NCBI GenBank assembly: GCA_041305945.1
Contig: JBGLND010000001.1
Coordinates: 3,216,218-3,280,217, forward strand
Direction of reading: 5' to 3'
From: Promethearchaeota archaeon
GTDB lineage: Archaea > Asgardarchaeota > Lokiarchaeia > Sigyniarchaeales > Sigyniarchaeaceae
DNA length: 64,000 nucleotides
Under the pieces are notes generated by a model. That model was not told the DNA's origin. It did no database searches and saw nothing but the letters and a program-made list of their open reading frames with translations. Of this stretch, positions 7,708 through 62,078 are shown piece by piece; within the stretch, counting starts at the first letter, position 1; each line of letters begins with the position of its first letter. A program made the translations under genes and the position numbers.

Positions 7708-9006
7708 CTAGGAGATTCTTGTCGATTCCACCAGGTGCCATGGCAAGCCACTCTTCCCCATCGATTCGAGGAACGGTTCCGGGTCCAGCTGCTCGACGTT
7801 GAATACGCCCTTGCCTTTCCACTTGCCGTCAAGCACGAGCCCCGCGCCGCAAGCCGCGGGGACCCCGGCAGTATACGCCACAGCGTTTTCCCCGACTTCC
7901 TTGAAGGCAAGCTCGTGATCGCAAGTGTTATAGATGAACATCGTTTTTTCCTTTCCATCCTTTAAGCCCGTTAGCAAGCACCCGATGACCGTTTTCCCTT
8001 GATAGTTATCGGCCAGCGAGTGCGGGTCGGGGAGCAAGGCCTTGAGGAATTGCAACGGAACCACCGGTTGGCCGTTGTACACGACGGGATCGATGCGGGT
8101 CATCCCGACGTTCTCGAGCACCCGCAAGTGCGTTAGATAGGCCTCGGAGAAGGTCATCCAGAACCGGCACCGTCGCACCCCGTCGAAGTGCTTCGCGATG
8201 GATTCCAGCTCCTCGTGATAGAGCAAGTACACCTCTTTTGGACCTACAACCGGAAAATCAAAGGTCATGTGCACGCTGCCTGGCGAGATGATGGGTGGGG
8301 TCTCGACCCACCGGCCGCCATCGAAATGCCGCACGACCTGGGTGACCTCGCGGATGTTGATCTCCGGGTTGAAGTTCGTGGCGAATGCTTGGTGGTGGTT
8401 ACCAGCATTGCAATCTAGAATGTCGATCGTCTCGACTTGGTCGAGGAAGTGCTTCGAAACGTGCCGACAATATGCATTGGTTGCGCCAGGGTCGAACCCG
8501 CAGCCAAGGACTCCCATGATGCCCTGCGCCTAGTATCGGTCGTTGAAATCCCACTGCGGCTTGTATTCGAAGTGGGCAACTCCCGGCGACTCGAAATTGG
8601 CCGTGTCGAGGTAATGCGCGCCCGTGGAGACGCATGCCTCCATGATGGCCAAGTCGTGGTACGGCAGGGCGACGTTGATGACGATGTCTGGCTCGAACCG
8701 TTTCATCAATGCTTGGAGTTCCCGCGGCTCGTTTGCATCGACCTTGGCAACTTCAACGTTCCGGTCAATACGTGCCCGTATCCGTTCACATTTAGAAAGT
8801 GTACGGCTCGCCACGCAGATTTCCCCGAACGTGTTAGCGTCTTTCGCGCATTTTTGCGATACGACAGACCCCACGCTCCCCGCCCCGATGATGAGGACGC
8901 GCCCGAGCCGAGTTTTTCCCATTCCGTGGTTTCCTCGCGATGGCCTTGATCGTGGTTTTCCGAGATCCGGCAATGCATAATGGTTGAAAAAAAAAATCAT
9001 GGCCAT
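7708..9006 (-). pseudogene. Carboxynorspermidine dehydrogenase (saccharopine dehydrogenase family) interrupted by an in-frame TAG
   Basis: The N-terminal 158 aa (GRVLIIGAGSVGSVV Rossmann) and the C-terminal 269 aa (GVLGCGFDPGATNAY...) are in the same frame. A single TAG at 8530-8532 separates them: ...FNDRY*AQGIMGVLGCGFDPG, checked base by base. Confidence 0.7.
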
Positions 9007-9292
9007 CCCGCTGGCGTGTGTGGCTTTGTTTGTCCCTTCCCGACCCGGCAGAGCAGTGTCGCGGTGCTCGGCCGTGTTGGTTCGTGCCCCGGCATGGTTA
9101 AGACCGGCGTGGTGGGTCTAAATCCAAGGAAGATACATTTCATTCAACATCAAGGTAACATCAACCCCTCCTGCTTCCCGCGCGTTCCGGGCACTTGCGA
9201 TTTGCTCGTGCCCATCTCGTCACGTGATTATTCATTCCCGGACCCGCGGGACGGCAGCTAATTCTCCCGTTGCGCGCTCCGGGCACCTTGCT

Positions 9293-9308
9293 GAAAAATA
9301 TAATATGT
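9293..9308 (+). promoter_or_regulatory. Putative archaeal TATA box (AAAAATATAATA) ~25-35 nt upstream of the ATG at 9331
   Basis: This is an AT-rich box in an otherwise GC-rich intergenic spacer. Its spacing is consistent with a leaderless or short-leader archaeal transcript. Confidence 0.35.
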
Positions 9309-9330
9309 CCCACTGGAACTTCCTCTCGCG

Positions 9331-10335
9331 ATGTCTGATCTTGACACGGTAACAAGGATCGAACTCACGCCCGTGAACGTGCCGTTCAAGGCGATCGTTC
9401 GCCAAGCGATGCTCGCCGGGGCAGGTGGCTTGGGGATGGCGATACCAAGCGACGAGCCGTGGCTCGGCGGCGACTTCGTGATATGCCGGTTAGAAACCGG
9501 GAATGGCACGACGGGACTCGGCGAGGCATACATCTGGCTCCCCGAAACGGGCCAAACAACCGGCCAGATCATTGATGTCATCAAGGTCGCGCTCCACCGG
9601 TACGTCATCGGGGAAAATCCCGGGAACTTCAAGAAAATAAAGGCCCGTATGGACGTAAACGTCGCGAGAAATGAGGTTGCAAAGGGCTTGCTGGATATCG
9701 CCCTCTATGACCTCGTCGGGAAGCTAACGAACAAACCCGTTCACGAGATCATCGGCGGGAAGAGATGCGAGACGCTCCCCCTCGCGGCATTGGTTCCTCT
9801 CGGCAAGCTGGAAAGCATGGTGGAATACGCGCTGGTTTTCAAGGAGATGGGCTACAAGACGCTCAGGGTCAAGCTAGGCACCAGCATTCAAGATGATGCC
9901 ACGATCATGGCCGCCATCCGTGACGCTGTTGGACCCAAGATACGACTACGGGTGGATTACAACCAAGCGTACGCCGTCCCAGACGCGATCACGGCGATCC
10001 AGGCCATCGAGCCATTCGACATCGACGTCGCGGAGCAACCGGTTGCCATGGACGACTATCTGGGCATGAAAACCGTCCAAGAGCGTGTAAAGACCCCCTT
10101 GATGGCGCACGAGGGGTGCTTGGTCCTCGCTGCAACGAACGAGGGGCTCGGAACATGCTGGGTCGGCTACTTCGACGAGGAGAAGGTCAAGTCCGTATTG
10201 AACGTCCCCGCGAGATCCCGGATCGTTGCCATCACGCCCCTTGGTTACCCCGACGAGGAACCGAAGCCAACGTCACGCAAGGCCATCGACGAGATCGCGT
10301 TCCTGAACGAGTATGGTGCGAAGTATGTCTCTTGA
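9331..10335 (+). CDS. Chimeric ORF: enolase-superfamily (mandelate racemase/muconate lactonizing enzyme) N-terminal ~255 aa fused in frame to a nitroreductase C-terminal ~75 aa
   Basis: The MR/MLE part has ligand-region motifs (RVDYNQAY, DVAEQP, PLMAHEG). The sequence then switches to a nitroreductase tail, CLVLAATNEGLGTCWVGYFDEEKVKSVLNVPARSRIVAITPLGYPDEEP. This tail closely resembles the C-termini of the ferredoxin-nitroreductases at 15271 and 20718. Confidence 0.55.
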   Translation: MSDLDTVTRIELTPVNVPFKAIVRQAMLAGAGGLGMAIPSDEPWLGGDFVICRLETGNGTTGLGEAYIWLPETGQTTGQIIDVIKVALHRYVIGENPGNFKKIKARMDVNVARNEVAKGLLDIALYDLVGKLTNKPVHEIIGGKRCETLPLAALVPLGKLESMVEYALVFKEMGYKTLRVKLGTSIQDDATIMAAIRDAVGPKIRLRVDYNQAYAVPDAITAIQAIEPFDIDVAEQPVAMDDYLGMKTVQERVKTPLMAHEGCLVLAATNEGLGTCWVGYFDEEKVKSVLNVPARSRIVAITPLGYPDEEPKPTSRKAIDEIAFLNEYGAKYVS

Positions 10336-16077: not shown

Positions 16078-16206
16078 TGGTAAAGGCTCGCCTCTATAAC
16101 GTGCTATGCAGCACGCGGTTGCAATCGGCGCCAGCCTTGCCATCCATTGAATCACGGTCTAATTCGTGCTTCGTCCATCAATACCCATCCCCAGATAGGT
16201 CATGAA

Positions 16207-19200
16207 ATGCGGTTCGAACAAGTTATATTCTTGAATCGTTTCCTTGAAAATATCAAACACGGTTTGAAAATCCTTCACGCGTTCAACGAGTCGTATCTCG
16301 TCAAGAAGAAGGATGAGAAGGCCATCGCGTCCATCGCGCGGCATCTCTCCACCTTCAAGGTATTCCCGCTCGAAGGCAGCGGCAAGAAGGAGCCGCTCGC
16401 CAGCTTGGACGACCCCCGTCTCTTTCCTCGGAAGCTCGCGTTGCCCTCGTTCCTCGCTTCGGGATTGAAAGGAACGAACGACATGCGGTACCTCGACCAG
16501 GACATCGATGCATTGATCGAACGGATCAACATAGAATTCCCCCACAAGACAAAACTCGAGAACATCAAGCTGGACGTCTTGCTCAAGATGCCCAAGCTAT
16601 GGACCCCGACGTTGAAAGAAAAGGATGACCATCTAGCATTCATCAACTACATCACGGTCATCGCGAGGGTGCGTTATTACCGGGAAAATGACCCCGTGCA
16701 ATGGAATCGATTGCTCGGTCAATTGCAGCTCAAGGTGGAGGGTTCCAACGATTTCAAGCCGTTGAATCTGCTGGTGCCTGTTTTTATTCGGAACAACTTC
16801 AAGGCGTGGTGGAACCGGCTCACGGGCTCGTTTGCACAGCAGGAAGATTTCACGTTTGGCCACCACGACGAGGCCTTTTACGGCAAGGTTACCTCGACCC
16901 AAATCGATGGGATGATGGAAGGCAACGAATCGGCGTGCCAAGTGTTCGATAACAATTATTTCATGACCTTGATGATCAGTTACTTGAAATCAAAGGAATC
17001 CACGTGGCAAGGCGAGGATGTTATCAAGCATTTTGCTAAAAACTTGTATAACGTGCTTCAAGAAAATGAGCGTGGTAAAAAACCCGACCGAACCGTTCAG
17101 CGCGATCATGTAAGCACGTTGCTTGACCTGCTCGTTTCGAGAACACGTGACCACAATCCTGCGCTGTTCCAGAAATACTACTTGAACGCAAGAACAAATT
17201 TCTTCCGATATATCTTGGATACCAATGAATACATCGACCAAGATAACGATTTTATCATTTCCATCCGGCATCTCATGAAAAATGCAGTTTTATCCGAGCC
17301 ATTTAATGACGAGTTGATCGACGCGTTCATATCCAGCAAGTTCAAGCAAGTGAATGATCTCTTCACGATCGAACGTGTGGCAGAGAAATTCAAGAACGTG
17401 CAAATTAACAAGAGCACGCTGGTTGAAATGAGCGCGTTCTTGGAAGAATTTAACGCGTACCTGACGAGCTTGGGACTCCAAGACGGTCTCGCGTTGTTGA
17501 AAGGGCACGCGCCTGGCGGCGGGAAACCAGCAGCGGGCCAGCTTTCGGGCTTCGAGGCCTTGAAGCGGGACATGCAAGTGGTCCTCAAGGTTTCCGACGA
17601 CGATGCAAGGAACTCCCCGTTCTCCTTCCAGCAAGTCTTTTCAAAGAAAGGACAAAAGGACCCGAGGCTGTCGGGGATCGAGGAAATTCACGAGTTCGTG
17701 CCAGGTTTCATTTACTGGGAGACCCTTCTTTCAAAATTCGGCCTCCAAGAGAAACAAGTTGAACCATTCAAGGCATTCTTCGAGATCACGCCGTTGGCCG
17801 TGGACGACCTCTTGCATTACCTCCGCCAAACGAGCGGGAACGCTGCGCGGAAAAACCAGGAACAGCTGTTCGTCCTGGCCAAGTTCTTGATCGAGCGTTT
17901 CTTCGAGGCTTGGTCATCATCATCGCTCGATGTTGCCATGTTTCCGGTCTTGAAATTGAGCGAGAGTGGCATGGTCCAGAAGCAATTCTTGTCGTGGAAT
18001 GGATTGATCGATAACAACGTGTTTTGCACGTGCAATCAAGAGGTCATCGAGGAGCTCGGTTCGAAATTGCAGAAGAAGGGAAAACCCGTGTATCTCCTGT
18101 TCGACAAGCAGCACACCGACGAGTTCGAGAAGTGGTACGGGCTGGTCAACACGATCCTGGAAACGATGAAAGGGGCGAAAATATTTTACTTGGAAACCAT
18201 CCAGAGCAAGATCGCGAACATCAACGATGCTATCACGCAATCATCGCGTGACCAACTCGTTACCTTGGAACGCAAGAATCCTTTCTTCAACGAAACGATT
18301 TTCATCCGGTACTTGTTGCCGATCCTGCAAAAATGCAGTTTCCCTCACACCTTCAAGGATATAAACATCCTTGACGTGGATGCTGCCTTCTTGAACAATT
18401 CATTCGTGTTTGATTACCTGTCCGAGACCGATGCGGACATGACCGTCGAAAAATTTGACGGGGTTGTCATTGACATCAAGAAAGAGAAAATCACCACGTT
18501 TTTCGAGCCGCAAGTCCACCCGCACAAGCAAGCCGTCATCATCTACGTCTCGAAAACATTCAAGAAAAGCGACCAGAAGAACGAGTATTACAAGTTCTTG
18601 TTCCGGCGGTTGTTTCCGAAGCAAAAAATGGAAAAAGGCGCGTATTCACAATTCCTCGAGTTTTTTAACTGGATGGACGATTTCGACAGGACGTTCTTCG
18701 AGGACACGGCTGATCCCGGTGCCATCGAGGCTGGGATACTGGACTACGTGTACCAGCGCAACACTTTACAGCTGAAGGCCAGCAAGTCATACGAGATCGG
18801 CAAGGAATTGCGAGCGTTCTGCGACGCGTGCCAAGAAACGTGGCTGGAACTGCGCCCATCGTGGAGCGCATCAACGGGTGCAAGAGAGCTGCCCGCGGGA
18901 ACCGTTGACGCGTGGACGCGTTGGTTCGACCTGATCGCGAGCCACCTTGCCCTCGACGAGGTGGGTAAAACGAAGAAAGTCGAGCTCCGGCTCGACGGGG
19001 ATGGCAAGCACGTGTCCGTCGAGATACGGTACTCGCTCGGTTCCAAGGATGCACCTTTCCCGAAAACTGCAACGGGGAAACAGGATTACATCAAGGCCAT
19101 GATCACCGCCATCACGCAACATTTTCTTGACCCCGGCAATGGCATGCGCGGCTCGATCGAAAGCGTGTTCCCCGGGGCCGGCCTACTCGACGTGAAAGGC

Positions 19201-19404
19201 ATTGCCAAGGTCTTCAAGGTACTCGGGAGCCGGCCGGTTCGTGAACCGCCGGTAACGGGTCCCGTGCCCGCGCGACCCTCGTCTCCCGACCTTGAAATGC
19301 CCGCGGTTGCCTCGTCACGCCCGCCAGGCCCCGCTTTCCCCTCGCCGATTACAGGTCAAAATAACAGAAATAATCCATCGAAGCAAAGGATACAAGTGGC
19401 TTGA
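16207..19404 (+). CDS. Large (1066 aa) uncharacterised cytoplasmic protein, predicted all-alpha, with a Pro-rich disordered C-terminal tail
   Basis: The ORF is long and uninterrupted, with no TM segment and no recognisable catalytic or nucleotide-binding motif. It is rich in K/E/F/N/Y and its codons are visibly more A/T-rich than neighbouring genes. The tail is PVREPPVTGPVPARPSSPDLEMPAVASSRPPGPAFPSP. The track ORF begins at 16147, and the first ATG in frame is at 16207. Confidence 0.65.
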   Translation: MRFEQVIFLNRFLENIKHGLKILHAFNESYLVKKKDEKAIASIARHLSTFKVFPLEGSGKKEPLASLDDPRLFPRKLALPSFLASGLKGTNDMRYLDQDIDALIERINIEFPHKTKLENIKLDVLLKMPKLWTPTLKEKDDHLAFINYITVIARVRYYRENDPVQWNRLLGQLQLKVEGSNDFKPLNLLVPVFIRNNFKAWWNRLTGSFAQQEDFTFGHHDEAFYGKVTSTQIDGMMEGNESACQVFDNNYFMTLMISYLKSKESTWQGEDVIKHFAKNLYNVLQENERGKKPDRTVQRDHVSTLLDLLVSRTRDHNPALFQKYYLNARTNFFRYILDTNEYIDQDNDFIISIRHLMKNAVLSEPFNDELIDAFISSKFKQVNDLFTIERVAEKFKNVQINKSTLVEMSAFLEEFNAYLTSLGLQDGLALLKGHAPGGGKPAAGQLSGFEALKRDMQVVLKVSDDDARNSPFSFQQVFSKKGQKDPRLSGIEEIHEFVPGFIYWETLLSKFGLQEKQVEPFKAFFEITPLAVDDLLHYLRQTSGNAARKNQEQLFVLAKFLIERFFEAWSSSSLDVAMFPVLKLSESGMVQKQFLSWNGLIDNNVFCTCNQEVIEELGSKLQKKGKPVYLLFDKQHTDEFEKWYGLVNTILETMKGAKIFYLETIQSKIANINDAITQSSRDQLVTLERKNPFFNETIFIRYLLPILQKCSFPHTFKDINILDVDAAFLNNSFVFDYLSETDADMTVEKFDGVVIDIKKEKITTFFEPQVHPHKQAVIIYVSKTFKKSDQKNEYYKFLFRRLFPKQKMEKGAYSQFLEFFNWMDDFDRTFFEDTADPGAIEAGILDYVYQRNTLQLKASKSYEIGKELRAFCDACQETWLELRPSWSASTGARELPAGTVDAWTRWFDLIASHLALDEVGKTKKVELRLDGDGKHVSVEIRYSLGSKDAPFPKTATGKQDYIKAMITAITQHFLDPGNGMRGSIESVFPGAGLLDVKGIAKVFKVLGSRPVREPPVTGPVPARPSSPDLEMPAVASSRPPGPAFPSPITGQNNRNNPSKQRIQVA

Positions 19405-25073: not shown

Positions 25074-25507
25074 AGACCATGGACGCTGAAAAAAAGGGAC
25101 AGAATAAGGGAAAACGGGAGCTACCGTGGGTGGAAAAATACCGGCCAAAACACATGAACGAGATGGTCGGTGTTGACTCGAAGCGAAAGGAGCTTACCGA
25201 GTTCCTGGACGCGTTCCCGAAGACCCGCGCGGCCGTCTTGATCGGGCCGCCCGGCGTTGGGAAGACGACCATGGTTTACGCTGTTGCCGCGGACAAGAAT
25301 CGCGATATCATAGAGATGAACGCGTCCGATGCCAGGAACTCCGACCAGATCAAGAAGAAAGTCCAAGAGTCCACGAGGACACGGTCGATCACGGACTTCA
25401 TGGGCATAACGAAGGGAAAGGTCATCCTCATCGACGAGGTCGATGGCATCAGCGGGAACGAGGACAAGGGCGGGATACAAACCCTCGTGGACATCATCGT
25501 TCCGTAA
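25070..25507 (+). pseudogene. rfcL: Replication factor C large subunit, N-terminal 145 aa only
   Basis: LPWVEKYRPKHMNEMVG, Walker A GPPGVGKTT, Walker B ILIDEVDGISGNED and GGIQTL are followed immediately by a stop. The expected C-terminal ~300 aa are absent. Confidence 0.7.
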
Positions 25508-27233
25508 AGCGATCGGGCGCGATGTGCTTGGTAATAAACCCGCCTCTGGAACCGAAATTCTTGTCGAGCTTGGCATGGGGTGCATCAACCCGAAGAAACC
25601 CAACATCCTCATGATCGGGCACAATGCTGCCCCCGGCGTGGAGATGGTCGATTATGTCCGTGAGCACGGGCTGGACGACGCGGTCGATATCTCCGCGATC
25701 TGCTGCACCGCCATCGATCTCACGAGGTACTGGGACCGCGTGAAGGTCGTCGGTTCGATGTCCAGGCAGATGCGCTTCATCCGGTCGGGTATTCCTGACG
25801 TCGTGATGGTTGATGAGCAATGCGTGCGATGCGACAACATCTGGGAAGCCAAGAAAATAAAGGCTGCGTTCATCGCGACGAACGAGAAGAACATGATGGG
25901 ATTGCCAGACCGTACGCACGATGACGAGAACAAGATCATTGACGACCTGGTGAATTTGAAGGTGGATGGTGTCTTGATTCTCGATCCCGCAAAGGCCGGA
26001 CGAATTGCCGTCAAGGTAGCGATGGCGATCCATCCAAAACGTGCGGATGTCAACATCATTCCGAAGGCCGATGATATTATCGAAATGGCAAGCAGGTGCA
26101 CGTTCTGCGAGAATTGCTCCCGTGCATGCCCTAACGACCTCCCTCTAGCCGAAGCCGTGCAAGCAGCAGCAAAAGGAGACTTCTCTATGCTTAGAGCCTT
26201 GGAACCCGAATGTCTCAACTGTGGCCGTTGTGAAAAAGAATGTGCAAAGAACGTCAGTCCGGTCTTGCTTATACAATCGGCAACAATGGATAGGCTCGTG
26301 GAGGAGAAATACAAGATGCGCGCGGGCCGGGGTCCTGTCACGGACGTTGAGATCCGGAACATCGGTGCCCCCGTCGTGCTCGGGGAAATACCCGGCGTCA
26401 TAGCAATCGTCGGGTGCGCGAACTACCCATCAGATATCAACGAGGTCGCTTACGTCGCCGATGAATTTTGCAGGCGCGGGTACATCGTGCTCACGACCGG
26501 GTGCGAGGCCATGGATATCGCGCTTTATAGGGATCCCGAAACCGGCCAGACGCTATATGAGAAGTACAGCGGGGTCGTCGAGCGCGGCTGCTTGGTCAAC
26601 ATCGGTTCTTGCGTCTCGAACGGCCACATCACCGGGTGCGCAGCGAAGGTGGCTAACATCTTCGCGCGGAGACCGCTGCGCGGGAACTTCGAGGAGATCG
26701 CGGACTATATCTTGCACCGAGTTGGTGCGGTCGGCCTCTCGTGGGGTGCCATGAGCCAGAAGGCAGCATCCATTGCCACGGGTGTCAACGTCATCGGCAT
26801 CCCCGTCGTGGTCGGCCCGCACGGTGCCGAGTACCGGCGGCAATATCTCGGCAGGACCGACGACCCGTCCAGGTGGAAGGTCTGGAACATGCGCGACGGC
26901 ACGGAGCACGTTGCAGATCCATGCCCCGAGCACTTGATCTTCGCTGCGGAATCCAAGGAAGAGGCCATCGTAGCCATGGCGAAGCTTTGCCTGCGCCCGG
27001 CAGACTCGACGAAGGGTCGCAGCATCAAGATTTCGAACTGGGTCGATCTCCACAAAAAATACATCGGTGGGCTTCCCCATGACCTCACGACCTATATCCG
27101 GGTCGAGGCAGATATCCCAATCACCATCAAGGACGAGGTCATGGGAATGCTCAAAGCAGAAAACTGGCAACCCAAGGAAATCATCGACCCGACCATGGTC
27201 GAGCGACTCGGCATTGCCCGGGCGAAGAAATAA
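25443..27233 (+). pseudogene. cdhA: Ni-CODH catalytic subunit, archaeal CdhA type (CODH/ACS alpha), lacking the N-terminal ~250-300 aa
   Basis: It has C-cluster region motifs (ILMIGHNAAPGVEMVDYV, ICCTAID) and an inserted 2x[4Fe-4S] ferredoxin domain typical of archaeal CdhA (FCENCSRACP, CLNCGRCEKEC). It lacks the N-terminal B/D-cluster cysteine region. It starts out of frame inside the 3-prime end of the rfcL fragment. Confidence 0.6.
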
Positions 27234-52815: not shown

Positions 52816-53057
52816 CTGCCGCCCAAGCTCACGCTCGGATCATTTCCATGAATGCCTCGATCCGGGTCCTGTTCTGTTCCACGTTCTCGCCGACATTGTT
52901 GAAGCTGGTTTCCACGACTGGTATGCCCATTTGGCGAGCCTTTTCCTTGAAAATGTTGAGCACGGGTGCGAGATTCTTGCAAGCGAAGGTACTCTGGAAC
53001 AACACGCCGTCCACATCGATATCCTTCTCGGGAAAAAAGGGTTCGTAAACAGTTATC

Positions 53058-54893
53058 TCATGGATTAATTTTTTTCTTCCATTCCGCATACCGCTGCCGG
53101 ACGACGTCGAATGCCAATTTAGGAACCCTGAATTCGTCCACGAAGCCCTTGTTGTTATACGACCGGGGGCGCCCGTCCGGCCTCGTTGGAAGGTCGACAC
53201 GCGTGTCACAGAACATCCACGTCCACGTCCCGCCGATGAAATCGTCGTGTTCCATTGCTGTCTTGATGTAGTGTTCCAATAATGCAGCCTGGAAATCCTC
53301 GCTCCATTTGGCAGCATCCCACGACCTGTACCCCCGGATGGCACCCGCGCCGAACTCGGTGAGCACGATGGGCTTGGGCGGCCCGAGCTCGTGGTCCTCA
53401 TCGAGCAATATATCGTGGATCAAGTTCACGATGTTCATGAACCCTTCCTTGTCCCCGCCGTACCACCCGTCGTAGATATTGATGGTCACGAAATCCGACA
53501 AGTCGTAGCACCTTTCCATGGCACGCTTTTGCGAGACGTGTATGATGAAACGGTTTCCCTTCTCTATGGCGCGTGCGTGGGCATAAAGAGCCTCGTGGAA
53601 CGCCCTTCCTTCGATGGTATCGGATTGTGTCTCGTTGCTCATCGACCACGCGATGATGCACGGGTGATTTTTATCACGTGAATGCATTTCCTCGAAATAA
53701 CGCTTGGCCGTGGCCAGGACCGCGGGATTTGCCATGTGGCTTGCGTCCAACTGGTAAGCTGGTATCTCCTCTATGAAGAACAAGCCGAGCTCGTCGCAAA
53801 AATCGAGCGTTTCCTTGGCAACGGGATAATGGGATCCTCGGAAGCAGTTAATGTTTGCTTCCTTCATGATCTGGAGGTCCTTGAAGATCAAGGTATCGGG
53901 TATCGCCGCGCCGAACGACGGGTGGTCCTCGTGCCTGTTCGTCCCGAGCATGGTGAACGGCCGGTTGTTCACGAAGAAGCGCGTGCCCCTTGTCTCCACC
54001 TTCCGGAAGCCCCACCGGGCACGTTCCGCATCGATGACCTCCCCGTTCTTGTTTTCCAAGGAAAGCTCGACCGAATACAAGTTGGGCGCGTCCGGGTGCC
54101 AGAGTTCCACGAGTGACGGGTCGAGATTGAATCTTGCGAGAAAAACAGCATGGTTTTTCCCATCAACATTGACCATCACCTTTTTGCTTCCCAACACGTT
54201 CACATACCTTTTAACATCTCGTATCGTGACGAGAATGGCTCCCTCGAAACTGAGGTCGCTCTTGTTTTCCATGTTCGTGGAGACCTCGAAGGAAATGCTG
54301 CCCGGCTTGGTGCTTGCCTCGCTAGCAAACTCGATCTCATCCATGAAGGTGAAATCCTCGATGCGGGCGGGTGGCTTCACGATGATGCCGACGTGTCGAT
54401 GGATGCCACCGTAGTTGAACCAGTCCACCGTGCGCGTCCACGGCAGCCGTTCAGGGTGTCCCCACTCATTATTCACGTAGACGACCACCGTGTTATCGTC
54501 GGAATTCCCCGGGTGCACGTGTGCCGTTATGTCCAGGGAGAATGACGTGTACCCGTTCTCGTGTTCACCGGCGAATTTCCCGTTCACCCATGTCATGCAC
54601 TTGCTATTCACGCCGCCGAACGTGAGCTCGATAGTATCGTCCGGGCTTGTCCTTTGCACGGCAAAGCATTTCTTGAAAAGCACGGTTCCGAAAAACCTGA
54701 ACAATTTCTTTTGTTGCAGGTTCCATGTTGAAGGCACGAAACATGGCTTCCATTCGCAAGTGGTGACTATGTCCCCAATTTTCTTTTCAAGTTGGATGCC
54801 ATCGCCGGCCTTGACCGACCGCTTCTCGTCAATCCAGTATTGCCACGTTCCATCTAAAATCAGAGTATTCCTCATGATCATCAATCTGGTCAT
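53058..54893 (-). CDS. Glycoside hydrolase family 2 (beta-galactosidase/beta-glucuronidase-like)
   Basis: It has the GH2 sugar-binding, Ig-like and TIM-barrel order. The motifs NCFRGSHYP (acid/base region) and IIAWSMSNE (nucleophile region) are present. Confidence 0.8.
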   Translation of the reverse strand: MTRLMIMRNTLILDGTWQYWIDEKRSVKAGDGIQLEKKIGDIVTTCEWKPCFVPSTWNLQQKKLFRFFGTVLFKKCFAVQRTSPDDTIELTFGGVNSKCMTWVNGKFAGEHENGYTSFSLDITAHVHPGNSDDNTVVVYVNNEWGHPERLPWTRTVDWFNYGGIHRHVGIIVKPPARIEDFTFMDEIEFASEASTKPGSISFEVSTNMENKSDLSFEGAILVTIRDVKRYVNVLGSKKVMVNVDGKNHAVFLARFNLDPSLVELWHPDAPNLYSVELSLENKNGEVIDAERARWGFRKVETRGTRFFVNNRPFTMLGTNRHEDHPSFGAAIPDTLIFKDLQIMKEANINCFRGSHYPVAKETLDFCDELGLFFIEEIPAYQLDASHMANPAVLATAKRYFEEMHSRDKNHPCIIAWSMSNETQSDTIEGRAFHEALYAHARAIEKGNRFIIHVSQKRAMERCYDLSDFVTINIYDGWYGGDKEGFMNIVNLIHDILLDEDHELGPPKPIVLTEFGAGAIRGYRSWDAAKWSEDFQAALLEHYIKTAMEHDDFIGGTWTWMFCDTRVDLPTRPDGRPRSYNNKGFVDEFRVPKLAFDVVRQRYAEWKKKINP

Positions 54894-55006
54894 GCATCTA
54901 TTTAATGATCAAGATGCCAAGCGACAGGTTGGTCGCGCTTTGAGGAAATACCATGCATGCTGGCCGGATCACGTGCCCATTGCACACGCGGGTGAAAAGG
55001 AACGTG

Positions 55007-55570
55007 TTAGTTTGTTGAACTCGTGATGCCTACCGCGGGCTTGCTCGCGTTTTGCATCAAGAGCGTGTCGACCAACGTGGCTATGGCCTCGTGGATATTC
55101 TCGCCGGTTTTCGACGAGGTCATGACCAATCCTGAGAGGTCAAGTTCCTTCACGTAATCCCATGCTTCCTTGATGGTGTCTTCGATATCTTCCTGATCGA
55201 CGATGTCGATCTTCGTGCCAACGAGCAAGATGGGCGAGTTTGGCAAGGCGTTTTTCCTGATCAAGTCGACCCATTCACGTATCTCGAACAAGGTGAACGA
55301 TCTGGACGCATCAAAAAACACGAGAGATGCAACGGCTCCCTTGACATACGTGGGTTGGATGAATCGGAACCTGTCTTGCCCCCCGAGGTCCCACAGCACC
55401 AGTCCTATTTTCTTACCTTGTCGTTCTAGATTATGCGTGTGCAATTGCACGCCAACGGTCAAGGCAGTATTGGAAACGAATTTATCGGTGAGATATCGTA
55501 ACAAGAACGTGGTCTTACCGACACCACCTTGACCGCATGCAATTATTTTCCACAAGAAATCCGGGGTCAT
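55007..55570 (-). CDS. Ras-superfamily small GTPase, Rab-like
   Basis: G1 is GQGGVGKTTFLLRY, switch I is TVGV, G3 is WDLGGQDRFR, G4 is VGTKIDI and G5 is TSSKTG. The ATG start is at 55570, and the track ORF begins at a TTG at 55600. Confidence 0.85.
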   Translation of the reverse strand: MTPDFLWKIIACGQGGVGKTTFLLRYLTDKFVSNTALTVGVQLHTHNLERQGKKIGLVLWDLGGQDRFRFIQPTYVKGAVASLVFFDASRSFTLFEIREWVDLIRKNALPNSPILLVGTKIDIVDQEDIEDTIKEAWDYVKELDLSGLVMTSSKTGENIHEAIATLVDTLLMQNASKPAVGITSSTN

Positions 55571-55760
55571 GAATGTTCTACCTTTGATAGCCGTATTCAA
55601 TCATTACCCCCTTTTGTAATAAAGCAACCTCTTACTAACAATAACTTGAGAAGGAGGTGTGGCATTGCCACGAAATTGTACGCATGCCAAGCATTATTCC
55701 GTGCCTATCGTGCTTGAATATTTACCGGTTACCGCGTCCCGCGGTTGCAAGCAGTACAAT

Positions 55761-56363
55761 TCAAGAGTATCGCATCATGCCCTTCACGAGCTCGTCCGCT
55801 CCCCCGAATATATCCCCGCCGTTACACCGGATGAAGAATTCTACCTGCAAGTTCACTTGGACGCCAGGATTTTCCCCGGACGATCGAAAGTCAGTCCGCA
55901 AGCCAAAAATTTTCTTGCCAATGGCAGCGGCATATCCTATTTCTGCAGCAACGCCCGAATCGATGTCCATGCCCGAGCCATCGAGGACCGCCACCAAGAA
56001 ATCTGCACGGGCTATGGCATCCTTTCCCGGTACGGACGCGAAATACGCGGGGGCACCGATCACGATGGCATCTGCACTGGTCATGAGCGATTCCAGCCTT
56101 CCCATGTCGTCCGATTCGCTCAACGGGCATGAAAACGGTTTTCTAAGACATGCATCACACCCGGTGCAGTGTTGCACGCTATACTCCGATAAATTGATCG
56201 TTTCCACCTCTATCGTGGGGCGGTCACTACCGTTTGCTGTTAGCGTGCTTGGCAAGGGCTCGACGTTCAATGCCTTGATTTTAGAGGCGAAAATACCCGC
56301 CAAAGTTGCTGTCATGCCGTTTTTTCGAGGGGAACCGTTCACCACGAGGATTTTTTTGTTCAC
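55761..56363 (-). CDS. Iron-sulfur flavoprotein (Isf)/NADPH-dependent FMN reductase-like protein
   Basis: KILVVNGSPRKNGMTA is the flavodoxin-like P-loop and CTGCDAC the compact Cys motif of Isf. The C-terminal 60 aa (DSGVAAEIGYAAAIGKKIF) resemble the nucleoside 2-deoxyribosyltransferase motif, which may mean a second junction. Confidence 0.6.
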   Translation of the reverse strand: MNKKILVVNGSPRKNGMTATLAGIFASKIKALNVEPLPSTLTANGSDRPTIEVETINLSEYSVQHCTGCDACLRKPFSCPLSESDDMGRLESLMTSADAIVIGAPAYFASVPGKDAIARADFLVAVLDGSGMDIDSGVAAEIGYAAAIGKKIFGLRTDFRSSGENPGVQVNLQVEFFIRCNGGDIFGGADELVKGMMRYS

Positions 56364-56409
56364 GTGGTACTATTCCCCGTATCGAATTAAAACCATGACA
56401 AGGGCGGGA

Positions 56410-56973
56410 TCACGTTGAGAACGGCGTGAACAGGAAGATGCCGGATTCTTTTTCAGCTTCGGCATAGATGCCGGGAAATACCTTCCGCGCGTGGGACAGC
56501 TTCTCGAACAAGGACTTGTAATTGTGCTGGATGTCATCCAGCATTTCTCCTGACGACCTGTTGCACCCTTGCACCCGTTCCGCATCCCGCTCTTCTTGGT
56601 GGATGGCATCGCTAAGCTTGATGAGTTCCATCTCGTGATCGTGCAATTTCTTCATCAACTTCTCGAGTTTTTTCTCTTGCTTGCCGCCTTGCATCTCGTC
56701 ATTTAATAGCGCCTTGATCTCGAACTCGTCAACGTTGATCTCCTTTATGAGGTCAAGCTTCTTCTCATTATCCTTTATGACCCTTTCGGGAACGTCCTTC
56801 AAGGCATCGATGTCCTTGCAAGCATGTTTTATCTCCTGGATTGCCTTGGCATACCCGTCGAACTGGAGCAGGTATTGCTTGATCGATTCCTTGATCGTCT
56901 CGCTGGACGGTGCGTTGGTGGTCGCGGGACTCGCCTCGTGGGGGGGCCATACGTGCGGAATGTTCGACGGCAA
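56410..56973 (-). CDS. Coiled-coil protein, uncharacterised family (paralog A)
   Basis: It shares ESI(K/R)Q.L..FD.Y.K, DVP, (Q)(H/Q)NYK and the C-terminal E(K/R)E(S/T)GI(F/I)(L/F)F motifs with 57629..58132. Confidence 0.5.
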   Translation of the reverse strand: MPSNIPHVWPPHEASPATTNAPSSETIKESIKQYLLQFDGYAKAIQEIKHACKDIDALKDVPERVIKDNEKKLDLIKEINVDEFEIKALLNDEMQGGKQEKKLEKLMKKLHDHEMELIKLSDAIHQEERDAERVQGCNRSSGEMLDDIQHNYKSLFEKLSHARKVFPGIYAEAEKESGIFLFTPFST

Positions 56974-57088
56974 TTAGGCCAACGGGGATTAATCAAGATA
57001 TTCCTTATGAGGGAAACTACTTCCCCGATGCTTGCTTCTATCCATGTACGTCGCGGGATCGCGCACGAATTGAAAGGATTGCACTTGC

Positions 57089-57568
57089 ATGTACCCCGCG
57101 GAGGCGATTAAGCATATGATAGGAAAGAAAAACATGTTGGGAACGAACCTTGTCACCCAGATTGGCATCGTCGTCAAGGATATAGAACAAACATCGCAAG
57201 CCTATGCTGACTTGTTCGGCGTGAAAACACCGGGCTGGCGATGGACCGATCCACATGAAAAAACGCACGCTGAATACCGGGGGAAACCAACAAACGCGCG
57301 CGCCAAGCTCGCGTTCTTCAAGTTCAAGAACATCACGCTGGAGTTGATCGAGCCAGATGGTGAGCCAAGCACGTGGCGCGAGTTCCTGGAAACGAGGGGG
57401 GAAGGCGTCCATCACGTCGCGTTCAACGTCAAGGACGCGGCGGGAAAGGTGCAAGCCCTCGCCGCGCGGGACATGGGCGTCGCGCAGAAAGGAGATTTCA
57501 CGGGCGGGCATTATGCCTACATGGATTCCCAGGAGATGCTCAAGGTCATCTTGGAGCTGCTCTCGTGA
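57089..57568 (+). CDS. VOC/glyoxalase-family protein (methylmalonyl-CoA epimerase-like)
   Basis: It has IGIVVKDIEQT...HHVAFNVKD paired beta-alpha-beta-beta-beta modules. Confidence 0.75.
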   Translation: MYPAEAIKHMIGKKNMLGTNLVTQIGIVVKDIEQTSQAYADLFGVKTPGWRWTDPHEKTHAEYRGKPTNARAKLAFFKFKNITLELIEPDGEPSTWREFLETRGEGVHHVAFNVKDAAGKVQALAARDMGVAQKGDFTGGHYAYMDSQEMLKVILELLS

Positions 57569-57628
57569 ATGGATGTGCCACGCGGGGACGGGTCCCGGAA
57601 AGAATAGCGCGGCGTGAACCCGAATCTT

Positions 57629-58132
57629 TCACCTGCCGTTCAATTGCGGCATGCTGAAGAAGATGATTCCCGTCTCGCGCTCGATCTCGTCGTACAATTC
57701 CTGGTATAGTTGCCGCATGCGCATGAGGTTGGCCATGACCGCCTTGTAATTTTGTTTCAATGTATCCTTGTTCAGCGTTGCATGTCCGTTATTCTTGGCA
57801 ACATCGATCTTGGCCTTCACGGATTCGATCTCCGCGACGATTTGGTGGATCTGGGCTTGTATCGCGGACACCTTGGACGATTGTTTCTCGATCTTCTTGA
57901 GAGTTGCGCCCTCGTTGATCATGTTGTTGAGGGTGTATTCCTCGGCAACGAGTTCCGTCCGGAGTGCATCATACCTCCTTTCATGCGCGCCAAGCTCGGC
58001 TTCCCACTTCGGAACGTCCCTCGTGTTGGCCGTATCGTCTTGCATCTGCTTCAATTGCTTCCCATATTCATCGAACCGGATGAGTTGCTGCCGTATCGAT
58101 TCCCGAAGGAGTGGATTTGGGTTTTCCATCAT
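57629..58132 (-). CDS. Coiled-coil protein, uncharacterised family (paralog B)
   Basis: It is a clear paralog of 56410..56973, with the same motifs. Confidence 0.5.
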   Translation of the reverse strand: MMENPNPLLRESIRQQLIRFDEYGKQLKQMQDDTANTRDVPKWEAELGAHERRYDALRTELVAEEYTLNNMINEGATLKKIEKQSSKVSAIQAQIHQIVAEIESVKAKIDVAKNNGHATLNKDTLKQNYKAVMANLMRMRQLYQELYDEIERETGIIFFSMPQLNGR

Positions 58133-58402
58133 ACGTCTCCCGTTTCACTAGACGTGCCAGATTTTAAAAGTCTTTCGTTTCGTTGTATGCATTCGTGCTT
58201 ATATTCATGAACGGGACACCCCGCGGTATGTTGCATTGCCACGGAATCTCACACGGCTAAAATTCATCCCCCCGTCCCGGCGAGTTACCGTTTGAGATTC
58301 TTTCAATGTACCGGGCCGCATGGATGACGACCGAGCTGGGCATGGCATCGTGGCTCGCGCCCGAGCCACGAAGACACACGCTATCGATATATCTGTTTGC
58401 TA

Positions 58403-59851
58403 CTAAGGGCTTAGCTTGGTGCAGTTGCCGAAAACATCAACAAACTCGTCTATCGACCTGTTAATAATTTTCCATGCATCACCCTTCCCTTGCCATTCCC
58501 TTACCGATGCATACTTCGGTTCCTCGAGGTTCTTGTACGTCCGGAAGAATTCCTTGATTTCATCAAGCACGTGGCAAGGAATGTGTTCCAACTCTTGGTA
58601 CACGTTGAAGAATGGATCGTGAATGGCCACTGAAAGGATTTTTTCGTCTATTCCCTTCTCATCTTCCATGATGAGTACACCCACGGGTCTCGCTGGAATG
58701 ATCGTTCCCGGGTAAGTCGGGTTGCTGATCATGACCAGGATATCGAGTGCATCGCCATCCGGAGCATGAGTGCCCGGGATGAGGCCGTAATCTTGTGGAT
58801 ACATGACACTGGAGTGCAGGACTCTATCCAGCATCAACAAGCCCGTGGATTTAGACATTTCATATTTGTTCTGCGTTTTTTTCGGGCATTCAACGATTGC
58901 ATTCACGATCCTTGGTGGATCGGGGCCGTGTATGATATGTTTCCAAGGAAGCAGCGGTTCCATCGCAATCACGGGCACAATCCTATAATCTTGATATCTA
59001 TGCCGCGAAGCAATAAAAAGCGGATCCTCCATTCGTTCTGAAATTTTTTCTGGAAGGGGGTCAGGATTGAAGACACACTCGCCACCGAGCTTGTAAATGC
59101 GTTCCGAGATGAGATCGAGGTGCTTCATCTCCTCCATGAAGGTTTTTTTAAGCAGGTCAGAAATAACTTGTGCCTTGTTGGAATTTTTCAATACTTCCAA
59201 GGGCTCCTTCTTCACCCGGAGCGCCAGCTTTTTCGCCTTCTCGTGCTGGTTGGTGTATTGAACGATCGCAGAGATCTCGGCTGCGACGGCCTTGTTGAGC
59301 AGGTCAAAATACTCGCTCGTGTATACCTTGGTGTGCTTGGTCTCGATGTCCGCGGGACCATCCGGCTCGGAAAAATCGAGGCTCTTGTATGCTTCAAAGA
59401 ACCTTAAGTGCTCTTCCTCGTCCTTGTATATCTTCCTGAACATCTGGACCGTGGTCTGGTCGCCGCAAGACCGTGCTTCCCGGATGACCTTGTCGTAGAG
59501 GGCCAAGGCTTCTGATTCGGCTTTCTCGTTGTTGACCATGTATTCCTTGAGATTGGTGCCGATGTCTGGCTTATCGGCTTTCGTGGTCGCTTCCCCGCCA
59601 AGGCGGTAGATGCGTTCCATGATCTCTCCCGCATGCTTCATCTCTTCGATCGCGAACTTCTTGATCTGGTGTCCGAGCTGCTCGTAGGTCGTCGTTTCCA
59701 GGAGGATATTTTCAAGCCTAATCCTCTTGAGAATTTTCTCCATACGAGTGTACTGGAGAATGTATTGAACCACGACTTGCAATTCACGAGCAACCGACGC
59801 GTTGAGCAATTTAAAGAGTTCTGCTGATGGTTGTACGCTCATGTATCTCAC
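58403..59851 (-). CDS. Fusion of two ferritin-like (bacterioferritin/rubrerythrin-type diiron) domains and a family-I inorganic pyrophosphatase
   Basis: Two repeats carry ...VVQYILQYT...EEMKHAGEIMERI and ISAIVQYTNQH...EEMKHLDLISERI (ExxH diiron ligands). The PPase core follows (ECPKKTQNKYEM, DRVL, YPQDYGLIPGT, DGDALDILV). Confidence 0.7.
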   Translation of the reverse strand: MRYMSVQPSAELFKLLNASVARELQVVVQYILQYTRMEKILKRIRLENILLETTTYEQLGHQIKKFAIEEMKHAGEIMERIYRLGGEATTKADKPDIGTNLKEYMVNNEKAESEALALYDKVIREARSCGDQTTVQMFRKIYKDEEEHLRFFEAYKSLDFSEPDGPADIETKHTKVYTSEYFDLLNKAVAAEISAIVQYTNQHEKAKKLALRVKKEPLEVLKNSNKAQVISDLLKKTFMEEMKHLDLISERIYKLGGECVFNPDPLPEKISERMEDPLFIASRHRYQDYRIVPVIAMEPLLPWKHIIHGPDPPRIVNAIVECPKKTQNKYEMSKSTGLLMLDRVLHSSVMYPQDYGLIPGTHAPDGDALDILVMISNPTYPGTIIPARPVGVLIMEDEKGIDEKILSVAIHDPFFNVYQELEHIPCHVLDEIKEFFRTYKNLEEPKYASVREWQGKGDAWKIINRSIDEFVDVFGNCTKLSP

Positions 59852-60086
59852 GTTGAAATTGCGTGTTTGAACTTTCGATGAGTGCGCGATAATCGATGAA
59901 AAAATTCATATGCGCGCCACTCGTATAGATACTGGTTTCACACGTTCGTTAAAAAGATTATCGCTTACGGCTAAAAGAATCCTCGTTACTCGCGTGGCAC
60001 ATGATATCCCATTATCATCGATAGAACCGGGTAACAGCCCGATGATCGTCGTGACACGAGGCAATTACCATGCATAATCATGTCAA

Positions 60087-61391
60087 GTGACAAGCACGCG
60101 GGATATATCAATGATAGAAATAAATGAGGAAACGAGCAAGTACATGGATGCTATCGTGAACGATATCATCAAGGAAATCGGGCCTCGAATGCCATGCAGC
60201 CCCGCGGAGGCGAGGGCGGCAGACCGCATCAAAGGAGAAATGGAAAAAACTTGCGACGAGGTGACCGTTGAACCATTCACTTGCCATCCAAGGGCATTCC
60301 TCGGGTGGGTAAAAATCGATGTCCTGTGCGTGGTGGCATCCCTCTTGCTATTCCAAGGGGCGAGCGCCATGACCACGGATGGAACGTGGCTCGGGGTCGC
60401 GCTTGCCGTGTCTGTGTCCTTGGTGGGATTGGGATTGGCCATCACGATAAAGGAGTTTTTTAATTACGATGAGTTCATCGACCATCTTTACAAAGAATTG
60501 CCGTCACAGAACGTGACAGGCCGGATCATGGCGAAGACAGCACCAAGAAAGGTCTTGATGTTTTCCGGCCACCACGACAGTGCCTTGCAGTTTAACTTGA
60601 TCAACCACCTGGGGATTGTGGGTTACGGGGTGCTCATCTTCGTGGGATTTGGCATTTTCCTTTTTTGGGGACTGGTGGCAGGGATAGGGGTTATACTTTC
60701 GATTGCCGGGCTCCCGTTGAATACTATTCAAAGCGTGAGCTTGTGGATACTCGTTCCCGGCACCCCGGTGGTGGTTGCATTCTGGTTTTTCGTTTCATCC
60801 GGTGAGAAGGCAAACAAGGTCCCTGGGGCTGCGGATAACTTGAGCGCGGTCGCTGTCGTGTTGGCCATCGGAAAATACATCAAGGAACACCCGGGATTTC
60901 TCCCGGATGACGTGGAAGTCAGGTTGATCTCGTTTGGATGCGAAGAGGCTGGCTTGCGCGGTGCATACCGGTATGTTGAAGCCCACCGCGATGAGATACA
61001 ACGATCAGGAGCTGTGCTGTACAACATGGACGGCATCCAAGACCGCACGAAATTCATGGCCTTCACGTTCGAGCCGACCACGCGAACCAAGCACGATATG
61101 GAGACCACCAACAATCTCATCGAGGCAGCCCATTCCCACGGCATCTCGATGGCAGTATTCGGCAATTCCCTTGCGTCCCGGCTGGGGGGCTGGTTCTCCG
61201 GGGGAACCGACGCAGCGGCGTTCTCCAAGGCGGGATTGAAGGCATCGTCATTCGGGGCGATCAACATCCTTGAATACGCAAGACACTACCACACGGTTCG
61301 GGACACGCCCGACAAGATCACGCCTGGCACGCTTGAAGAATGCTTGAAAATTGTACTCGGGATAATCGAAAAGGAACGAAATAATGAATGA
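60087..61391 (+). CDS. M28-family zinc aminopeptidase with inserted transmembrane helices
   Basis: It has the M28 metal ligands FSGHHDS, GAADNLSAV, FGCEEAGLRG and HTVRDT. There are 3-4 hydrophobic helices between residues ~75-230. Confidence 0.7.
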   Translation: MTSTRDISMIEINEETSKYMDAIVNDIIKEIGPRMPCSPAEARAADRIKGEMEKTCDEVTVEPFTCHPRAFLGWVKIDVLCVVASLLLFQGASAMTTDGTWLGVALAVSVSLVGLGLAITIKEFFNYDEFIDHLYKELPSQNVTGRIMAKTAPRKVLMFSGHHDSALQFNLINHLGIVGYGVLIFVGFGIFLFWGLVAGIGVILSIAGLPLNTIQSVSLWILVPGTPVVVAFWFFVSSGEKANKVPGAADNLSAVAVVLAIGKYIKEHPGFLPDDVEVRLISFGCEEAGLRGAYRYVEAHRDEIQRSGAVLYNMDGIQDRTKFMAFTFEPTTRTKHDMETTNNLIEAAHSHGISMAVFGNSLASRLGGWFSGGTDAAAFSKAGLKASSFGAINILEYARHYHTVRDTPDKITPGTLEECLKIVLGIIEKERNNE

Positions 61392-61427
61392 GATTTACTT
61401 CCATATCAACAATATTTCTCTTCACCG

Positions 61428-62078
61428 TTACTTGATTCCGTTCGTCTTGAGAAACAACGGCGCATACATCACTTTTTTCAAGACAGGCAGGTGCTGGAAA
61501 AGAATCTCGCCCGCCTTGAAGTCGTAATCCGGGGCCCCGTCCGCGGCGTAATCCGCGTGGTAGCATTCCACGATGAGCTTGCGAAGGTCAGCACGGCTTG
61601 CCAAGGTGTCACAAAAGTGTGCCCACAGGTCCTCGTCTTGCTGGGCTTGCCAGAACAAATAGCTGTTTTTTCGTCCTGACCGCAAGAACTTGCTCACGAG
61701 CAAACGGCCGAGCAGGCGCTTGTACTCGGCGAGGTTCTCAGGGGTTGGCGGTAGCCCTTTCTCCCGCAAGCCGGCCATGACTTGAACGGCGAGCTTGGCC
61801 GAGAGCCCTGCTTCCCAGACGCCTTCGTAATAGAACTGGTGCGCGAGACCTGCCGCATCGCCCAATGCAAGCACGCGGTGGGAATACGGGGTTTTGACCG
61901 GGGCCGCGGGAATGAGGGCGGTCACGAATGCCGAATGCATCCCGTCCAGAACGCGTTCCCGCGTTCCTTGGAACAATGGCTTGATGCGGGGATCACGGGA
62001 GATGGTATCGAGAAATTTTTCCTTGGTTGTCTTGTAATCGATGATGCCCGCGTTGAAAGTATCTTTCCTCGGTCCCAC
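61428..62078 (-). pseudogene. Geranylgeranyl reductase family (FAD-dependent) C-terminal fragment
   Basis: RVLALGDAAGLAHQ matches the GGR substrate/FAD motif (GDAAG). The N-terminal FAD-binding GxGxxG domain of ~180 aa is absent. The ORF begins right where the divergent gene starts. Confidence 0.6.

Follow-up and report, generated by a model that had tools for sequence, protein, structure and literature searches.

Do two paralogous coiled-coil proteins of an Asgard archaeon work with the Rab-like small GTPase whose gene lies beside theirs? The question arises from a 64,000-nucleotide stretch of a Promethearchaeota genome (contig JBGLND010000001.1, positions 3,216,218 to 3,280,217; here called the window), in which the GTPase gene and the genes of the two paralogs, A and B, share one strand and lie within 3.1 kb of sequence. 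Rab-, Arf-, and Rag-like GTPases number in the dozens in Asgard archaea, but, to our knowledge, almost nothing is known about the binding partners or targets of these small GTPases. An earlier note on this DNA had implied a partnership of the GTPase with the adjoining paralogs. Our analysis led us to a different reading, to which we assign a probability of about 0.6: A and B belong to a new Asgard protein family, the A/B pair serves as an adaptor for a dedicated Rab-like GTPase and a PHP-family enzyme encoded beside it in other genomes, and the neighborhood seen in the window is secondary.

The reported layout of the region (GTPase, flavoprotein open reading frame [ORF], two coiled-coil paralogs, and a VOC gene) was recovered in full. 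A is encoded at 56410-56973 on the minus strand (187 amino acids [aa]), and B is encoded at 57629-58132, also on the minus strand (167 aa; 166 aa in the public gene call, P0001). Between B and A, on the opposite (plus) strand, a VOC/glyoxalase-family gene occupies 57089-57568 (Pfam Glyoxalase_4, 2.2e-19). The alignment of A with B spans both ends of the proteins at 27% identity (BLASTP E = 3e-15), and, judged from this alignment, the similarity is far above chance and above mere coiled-coil composition. The common motifs claimed for the two proteins, ESI[KR]Q.L..FD.Y.K, DVP, NYK, and E[KR]E[ST]GI..F, were all confirmed in it. The C-terminal motif of A is FPGIYAEAEKESGIFLFTPF, and the C-terminal end of B is YDEIERETGIIFFSMP.

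A profile search with A and B against 1.84 billion representative sequences returned 36 hits, about 33 of which are full-length true members of 150 to 200 aa with the same motifs. An exhaustive profile search was needed, as a word-index homolog search returned only B itself when started from B alone and five proteins when started from the family alignment; a metagenome scan for family loci gave four loci. Both window paralogs scored 172 bits against the family hidden Markov model, and the N- and C-terminal motifs are present in the family alignment. No Pfam or NCBIfam model matched the paralogs beyond scattered, sub-threshold coiled-coil matches. Those of 27 members were spread over 120 coiled-coil families without consensus, and a profile search of Protein Data Bank (PDB) sequences with the family gave generic coiled coils only. 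On the strength of these searches, A and B belong to an unnamed and apparently undescribed family of Asgard-archaeal proteins.

AlphaFold2 modeled both proteins as all-helical hairpins, with mean confidence (pLDDT) of 92.1 for A and 90.8 for B. In the model of A, a helix at residues 24 to 91 and a turn at residues 92 to 96 are followed by a single 69-residue helix at residues 97 to 165 and then by a short helix and tail. The fold class of the family is confidently predicted to be an antiparallel coiled-coil hairpin of about 100 Å. Conservation is concentrated in an N-terminal helix (IK.SIKQ.L.QFD.YSK.I), a C-terminal element (R..FP.IY.E.E.ETGI.FFTP), and an N..KKLEK motif just past the hairpin turn; given the hairpin model, the first two of these should meet at its open end.

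A neighbor-joining (NJ) tree and the C-terminal signatures together divide the family into three clades, A, B, and C, with window protein A in clade A and window protein B in clade B. Type A, including window A, ends in GIHFFTP[FL]; type B, including window B, ends in GI[FY]FLT[TS]PK; and type C carries TFEIIQGFRQTIPEIY...GIYFFTMPK. Ancient duplication best explains the three types. A pair of cysteines, C52 and C137 in window A, is specific to type A, being conserved in 14 of 15 type A members and in 0 of 22 type B and C members; window B has no cysteine at all. Since the predicted turn lies at about residue 94, C52 and C137 should face each other across the hairpin, and they may form a metal or redox site.

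The genes for A and B are adjacent in all five independent loci, namely, the locus of the window and its sister metagenome-assembled genomes (MAGs) (L001-3), a Promethearchaeota MAG (L009), a metagenome contig (L011), a 2-kb contig (L012), and a Lokiarchaeota MAG represented by eight assemblies (L024-31). Identity between loci is only 30 to 53% for A and 25 to 56% for B; thus, the adjacency of A and B has outlasted deep divergence. Three of these diverged loci (L009, L011, and L024-31) have a common layout: a gene for a Rab-like GTPase is divergently oriented from A, with a shared upstream region of 255 to 410 bp between them, and A is followed by B and by a gene for a PHP-family phosphoesterase of about 400 aa. 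We refer to the GTPase, A, and B in this arrangement as the triad. The PHP-family protein has an HxH...DGEG motif and a PHP_C domain, the latter found in L009 (10572-11768), L011 (7113-8348), and L024-31 (2200-3378 in L024). A PHP-like protein is the most constant neighbor of A/B, occurring in every one of the four loci of sufficient length for the test. The fourth is the native locus of the window's species, represented by L003, with the order CCG protein, inorganic pyrophosphatase (PPase), B, VOC, A, FMN reductase, AP-endonuclease, PHP-like protein. There the PHP-like homolog (8301-9515) scores 462 bits and lies two genes from the A/B pair, the VOC gene stands between B and A in L001 to L003 exactly as in the window, and a CCG/GATase_2/Glu_synthase flank is held in common with L024. 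From its gene content, this native locus is a rearranged version of the GTPase-A-B-PHP cluster, with the order of B and A swapped, VOC between them, and no GTPase. We found no description of the GTPase-A-B-PHP cluster in the literature searched.

These loci suggest how the proteins might act. Since A and B are always encoded side by side, they would most likely form a heteromer, probably a four-helix rod. As a coiled-coil adaptor or effector, the rod would use the conserved head to bind the dedicated Rab-like GTPase in its GTP form and would couple this GTPase to the PHP enzyme. We infer this mechanism from the order of the genes and from a parallel with the helical Rab effectors of eukaryotes, which contact the switch and interswitch regions with paired helices. 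Several points weigh against it. The trees of both the family and the GTPases are NJ trees only, and the census is small, comprising five A/B loci and about five type C loci. The fold is generic, and structure comparison gives no functional clue. No GTPase gene lies upstream of the pair on the 2-kb contig L012, and none is present in the native sister-MAG locus L003. A further GTPase, P0155, groups weakly with the triad GTPases, yet no A/B pair lies near it. Finally, the synteny of L009, L011, and L024 and their common PHP gene mean that they are one ancestral arrangement that was retained and not independent reinventions.

The main rival is a reading in which the PHP enzyme is the sole partner of A/B and the GTPase has been kept as a passenger. 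More broadly, A/B (and C) could be unrelated to GTPases and serve as structural, scaffold, or chaperone-like proteins or as partners of the PHP-like enzyme alone, the GTPase being kept by descent. A, B, and the PHP-like gene occur together in all four testable loci and the GTPase in just three, and the pair in L012 has no GTPase upstream. Type C is always solo, and its constant neighbor is a DUF7531/CxxCxxCC protein, not a GTPase. Moreover, Asgard GTPases are generally not found in operons with regulators (Tran et al. 2024, PMC10933270). Against a passenger role, the divergent layout of GTPase and A with its shared upstream region has been kept even though A has diverged to 38 to 53% identity and the GTPases to 63%, and the GTPases adjoining the pair share one side of a branch that leads away from the clade of the window GTPase, although their monophyly is weakly supported. 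On balance, we consider it unlikely that the GTPase is a mere passenger, and this is nonetheless the strongest of the alternatives.

Some observations on the surroundings of type C and of other members are recorded here in their own right. A different, very conserved GTPase is encoded 2 to 5 kb from type C, among housekeeping genes. This Ras-family protein (L013, 15744-16319; L015, 2642-3211) is 85 to 89% identical across two genomes with GC contents of 0.50 and 0.34, in which the type C proteins are 38% identical; its gene forms a block with those for aspartate-semialdehyde dehydrogenase and a KH protein, and it is unusually conserved for an Asgard GTPase. A VOC/glyoxalase gene also stands directly upstream of the type C gene in an unrelated low-GC lineage (L016, 1024-1419; L017, 330-725), and the presence of a glyoxalase beside family members in both lineages could be coincidence or a weak recurrent association. 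A 197-aa divergent neighbor of a family member in L010 was considered as a GTPase and rejected, as it resembles a membrane protein.

Which GTPase goes with the A/B pair? That of the window is encoded at 55007-55600 on the minus strand, with 197 aa from a TTG codon; public gene calls begin at the ATG at 55570 and give 187 aa (P0037). Its translation contains all five G boxes (G1, GQGGVGKT; G2, TVGV; G3, WDLGGQDRFR; G4, TKID; and G5, SSK). It matched Pfam Ras with 114 bits against a cutoff of 21.6 (E = 5e-33), Pfam Arf with just 51 bits, and TIGR00231 with 74 bits. The best relatives of solved structure are Rab14, Ypt31/32, Rab43, Rab1, Sec4, and Rab8 (E = 1e-27 to 1e-24), and the best 60 PDB sequence matches (E = 2.6e-27 and weaker) are all Rab, Ypt, or Sec4 proteins except for one RAS and EF-hand domain protein. 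It has 564 homologs at E ≤ 1e-20, and records from Sigyn-, Loki-, and Hodarchaeota carry the name "Rab family GTPase." No C-terminal cysteine prenylation motif (CC, CxC, or CAAX) is present; the C terminus, ...LLMQNASKPAVGITSSTN, is free of cysteine. By these profile matches, the protein is a Rab-like Asgard GTPase of the Ras superfamily. The earlier note had described it as such, with five G boxes and Rab-type switch regions, and had allowed that it might instead group with MglA; the description is upheld, and the nearest solved relatives are Rabs and the nearest named ones Asgard Rab family GTPases.

This GTPase is nonetheless not the one that accompanies A/B elsewhere. The triad GTPases are 63% identical to each other and only 47 to 49% identical to the window GTPase and to P0049, its paralog in the same genome (60% identity). 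In NJ trees, which comprise Asgard homologs only, the window GTPase groups with P0049 and P0050 and not with the GTPases of L009 and L011 or with P0088. The branch that parts the triad GTPases from the window's 22-member clade was recovered in 500 of 500 NJ bootstraps; the triad GTPases all lie on the far side of it, their own monophyly being weakly supported, and both clades include Sigyn- and Lokiarchaeota sequences. The separate clade and the identity of 47 to 49% make the window GTPase a paralog, not an ortholog, of the GTPase that accompanies A/B. Its position differs as well: it follows A on A's own strand, with a chimeric ORF in between, whereas the triad GTPases are divergently oriented upstream of A. 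In two sister MAGs, the identical GTPase is found on another contig, between an intact deoxyribosyltransferase gene and a GH2 gene.

The explanation for its position in the window came from comparison with sister MAGs that carry near-identical sequence (GCA_041305845.1, GCA_041305905.1, and GCA_041306025.1). When contigs L001 to L008 of these MAGs were aligned to the window by blastn, positions 53028-62071 proved to be a mosaic of three successive blocks. Block 1 (53028-56024; 2,997 bp) matches L005 and L006 and holds GH2 and the GTPase together with a deoxyribosyltransferase gene reduced to its C-terminal part. Block 2 (56024-59049; 3,026 bp) matches L001, L002, and L003 and holds the N-terminal part of an FMN reductase gene, A, VOC, B, and PPase. 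Block 3 (59047-62071; 3,025 bp) matches L007 and L008 and contains a ferritin-like coding sequence up to residue 267, an M28 peptidase gene, and a portion of a 369-aa gene. Identity within the blocks is 99.0 to 99.97% and stops at the block ends, and the three blocks sit on three separate contigs in the sister MAGs. The sister-MAG contigs include JBFYKP010000419, JBFYKN010000595, and JBFYKP010000188; in addition, a Logan contig from SRR28346263 is identical to positions 56368-57296 of the window. The four junctions, at 53028, 56024, 59048, and 62071, are blunt, with junction sequences sharing just 1 to 2 bp. Sister contigs of up to 21.8 kb cross every junction with genes intact: the FMN reductase is full-length, the deoxyribosyltransferase has 174 aa, the ferritin-like protein has 325 aa and is followed by a RagA-like GTPase, and the pyrophosphatase (209 aa) stands alone. 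GATase_2, a native flank of the paralog block, is encoded on the same 3.7-Mb contig as the window (3,705,313 bp in full) yet outside the window.

Two ORFs at these junctions are chimeric. The first, at 55761-56363 on the minus strand, is the one that the earlier note had called an Isf-like flavoprotein. That label holds for its strand and for its N-terminal 113 aa, an Isf-like FMN reductase segment (Pfam FMN_red, residues 4 to 113); in the same frame, the ORF continues with the last ~87 aa of a nucleoside 2-deoxyribosyltransferase, of which residues 116 to 172 of the ORF match the C-terminal half of Pfam Nuc_deoxyrib_tr, so the ORF as a whole is a chimera. The breakpoint at 56024 is the same base for both sister contigs; beyond it, L003 runs on as an intact FMN_red gene, and L006 holds the intact 174-aa deoxyribosyltransferase. 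The exact chimeric protein was not found in the public protein collection. The GTPase block is joined to the paralog block only through this ORF, and the junction is seen only in the 3.7-Mb assembly. The second chimeric ORF, at 58403-59851 on the minus strand (two Pfam Ferritin matches and Pyrophosphatase at residues 318 to 469), consists of the first ~267 aa of a tandem ferritin-like protein, a 17-nucleotide 5′ leader that is read through, and a complete pyrophosphatase, with the junction at 59047-59049. This fusion of 479/482 aa (P0038) occurs only on the window's 3.7-Mb contig; in the sister MAGs, the ferritin (P0039, 325 aa) and the PPase (P0040, 209 aa) are separate. At the last junction, an ORF at 61428-62078 on the minus strand retains the C-terminal ~214 aa of the 369-aa gene, which is cut at 62071 in the window and is intact in L007 and L008.

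A local assembly artifact is indicated by four blunt breakpoints, spaced about 3.0 kb apart, in a comparison of genomes with 99.9% identity. We consider a local misassembly of the 3.7-Mb contig, inferred by comparison with other MAG contigs, to be the most likely origin of the mosaic; a very recent rearrangement is less likely. If the rearrangements were genuine and recent in this strain, both in-frame fusions would be real expressed genes and the adjacency of GTPase and paralogs would be real though young. The fusion P0038 does stand in the public record of the contig, the frame is kept in both junction ORFs (a roughly 1-in-9 coincidence for random joins), and the junctions lack repeats of the kind that usually mislead assemblers; in addition, the misassembly call rests on MAG contigs and not on reads. 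However, a genuine origin calls for four breakpoints within 9 kb that delimit blocks of 2,997, 3,026, and 3,025 bp, a regularity with no known biological cause, between genomes 99.9% identical inside the blocks. The genome would also no longer possess intact genes for ferritin, FMN reductase, and deoxyribosyltransferase or a stand-alone PPase gene, and each parental arrangement is backed by two to three independent MAGs. We therefore judge real rearrangement to be improbable. Whether by artifact or by recent rearrangement, the adjacency of GTPase and paralogs in the window is neither native nor conserved in this species. In practical terms, synteny and fusion inferences drawn from 53 to 62 kb, such as a "ferritin-pyrophosphatase" or a "flavoprotein-deoxyribosyltransferase," are not trustworthy before a check against reads.

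The near-equal block sizes suggest an assembly or pipeline artifact in the 3.7-Mb contig. A periodic shuffle of 3,024-bp blocks over the whole window was considered and rejected, as the Radical_SAM, GFO_IDH_MocA, and PK_C domains are uninterrupted at the extrapolated boundaries and the window contains ORFs of 1,062 and 1,085 aa. These two very long ORFs, at 3876-7064 on the minus strand (1,062 aa) and 16147-19404 on the plus strand (1,085 aa), have no Pfam match at E ≤ 1e-5. On the plus strand, a Prismane/CO-dehydrogenase-family ORF at 25443-27233 lacks the first ~190 profile positions, and a 312-aa ORF at 21995-22933 matches pyruvate kinase only in the PK_C domain and lacks the barrel; such truncated-looking ORFs may reflect natural variation or additional truncations or junctions of this assembly. 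No tRNA genes were found within the 64-kb window. In the sister MAG, the intact ferritin locus (L007) is flanked by a Roadblock/LC7 gene (3558-3920) and by a gene for a 313-aa Gtr1/RagA-like GTPase (8866-9807), the product of which clusters with the Sigynarchaeota nr entry MDO8117468.1; this clustering suggests a Sigynarchaeota-related Asgard archaeon as the source of the window.

Could the paralogs instead be divergent members of a known helical family, that is, ESCRT-III/Snf7/PspA, SNARE, prefoldin, or the small subunits of BLOC-1/BORC? Judged by Snf7 or PspA_IM30 profile matches together with a five-helix ESCRT-III core, they do not belong to the first of these. No SNARE or Syntaxin Pfam match was obtained, and the C terminus is a short GI.FFTP tail, not a transmembrane helix. 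Judged by a prefoldin profile match together with beta-hairpin(s) between the coiled-coil arms, they are not prefoldins either. Unlike the alpha/beta roadblock/LC7 and longin regulators of GTPases, the models are entirely helical, with no Robl_LC7 or longin match in Pfam. For BLOC-1/BORC, there were sub-threshold matches only: Snapin_Pallidin in 3 of 27 members (best, 1.1e-3) and BLOC1_2 in 1 of 27 (8.4e-4), amid 120 coiled-coil families at like levels. The shape itself, a two-armed helical hairpin of about 65 to 70 residues per arm, is shared with generic antiparallel coiled-coil hairpins such as prefoldin beta, the PI3K p85 iSH2 region, YscO, the SMC and Rad50 arms, and ESCRT-III alpha1-alpha2; these show no sequence relation to the family, which is without the family-specific elements of the others and alone has the head motifs at the two termini and the KKLEK tip. 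The paralogs cannot be assigned to ESCRT-III, SNARE, prefoldin, or PspA, just as the earlier note had said, nor to roadblock; they probably do not belong to BLOC-1, and membership in a known helical family is very improbable.

Weakest of all is the possibility that the GTPase at 55007-55600 and the adjacent paralogs form a native, operon-like minus-strand unit of functional partners, which their common strand, their span of 3.1 kb, and the membership of this GTPase in the same broad Asgard Rab-like family as those beside A/B elsewhere would favor, but which is hardly credible given the separate clade, the different contig in two sister MAGs, the chimeric join at 56024, and a gene order and orientation unlike those of the triad. 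Native linkage of this GTPase to the paralogs is already largely refuted. The wider idea of a linkage between the coiled-coil family and Rab-like GTPases fared better: orthologs of the paralogs are linked to such a GTPase in L009, L011, and L024-31, although not in L012 or the native sister-MAG locus, and type C stands alone.

The preferred reading, an A/B adaptor between a dedicated Rab-like GTPase and a PHP enzyme, can be set against known systems. What is new here is an unnamed Asgard family and a conserved four-gene cluster, within the known theme of a GTPase encoded with its partners. MglA/MglB (and RomR/RomX) resemble the triad in that a prokaryotic small Ras-like GTPase is encoded beside dedicated partners. 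However, MglB has the alpha/beta fold of roadblock/LC7 proteins, in contrast to the all-helical hairpins predicted for A and B, and the GTPase differs from MglA in having a canonical DxxGQ G3 box with its Asp and a Rab match far above all others. Closer to home, Thor-Rab and other Asgard Rab-like GTPases are, like those of the window and the triad, single-domain Ras/Rab-like proteins with complete G boxes and without C-terminal prenylation cysteines, the lack of which has been described for Thor-Rab (Tran et al. 2024, PMC10933270). The same study found that genes for Asgard GTPases do not generally cluster with those for regulators, and it noted that gene order usually gives no guide to the partners (PMC10933270). 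The triad clade, with its conserved divergent partner pair, is an exception to that general picture, and the GTPase-A-B-PHP cluster is useful for this very reason. It ties one Rab-like clade to two unnamed coiled-coil proteins and an enzyme, a concrete hypothesis that can be tested cheaply.

The eukaryotic coiled-coil Rab-binding proteins (Rabaptin-5, RILP, the Rab11-FIPs, and the guanine nucleotide exchange factor [GEF] Sec2/Rabin8) offer the nearest functional analogy. Like A and B as proposed here, they are small helical coiled coils that serve one specific Rab-type GTPase, and a dimeric helical rod is the established binding element of eukaryotic coiled-coil Rab effectors; on the GTPase side, similarity is highest to Rab14, Ypt31/32, Sec4, and Rab8. 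In contrast, no sequence or specific fold similarity connects these effectors with A/B, and they are mostly parallel homodimers, whereas A and B are predicted to form an antiparallel intramolecular hairpin and an A/B heteromer. A bolder extension, which we hold only tentatively and think rather doubtful, is that a specific Asgard Rab-like clade has in the A/B pair its first identifiable cognate partner, be it an effector, a tether-like adaptor, or a GEF, encoded with its GTPase and with a PHP phosphoesterase as output enzyme, and that the cysteine pair of type A might add redox or metal control. If so, the pairing of a Rab with a coiled-coil effector, as known from eukaryotic membrane traffic, would have a prokaryotic prototype in A/B.

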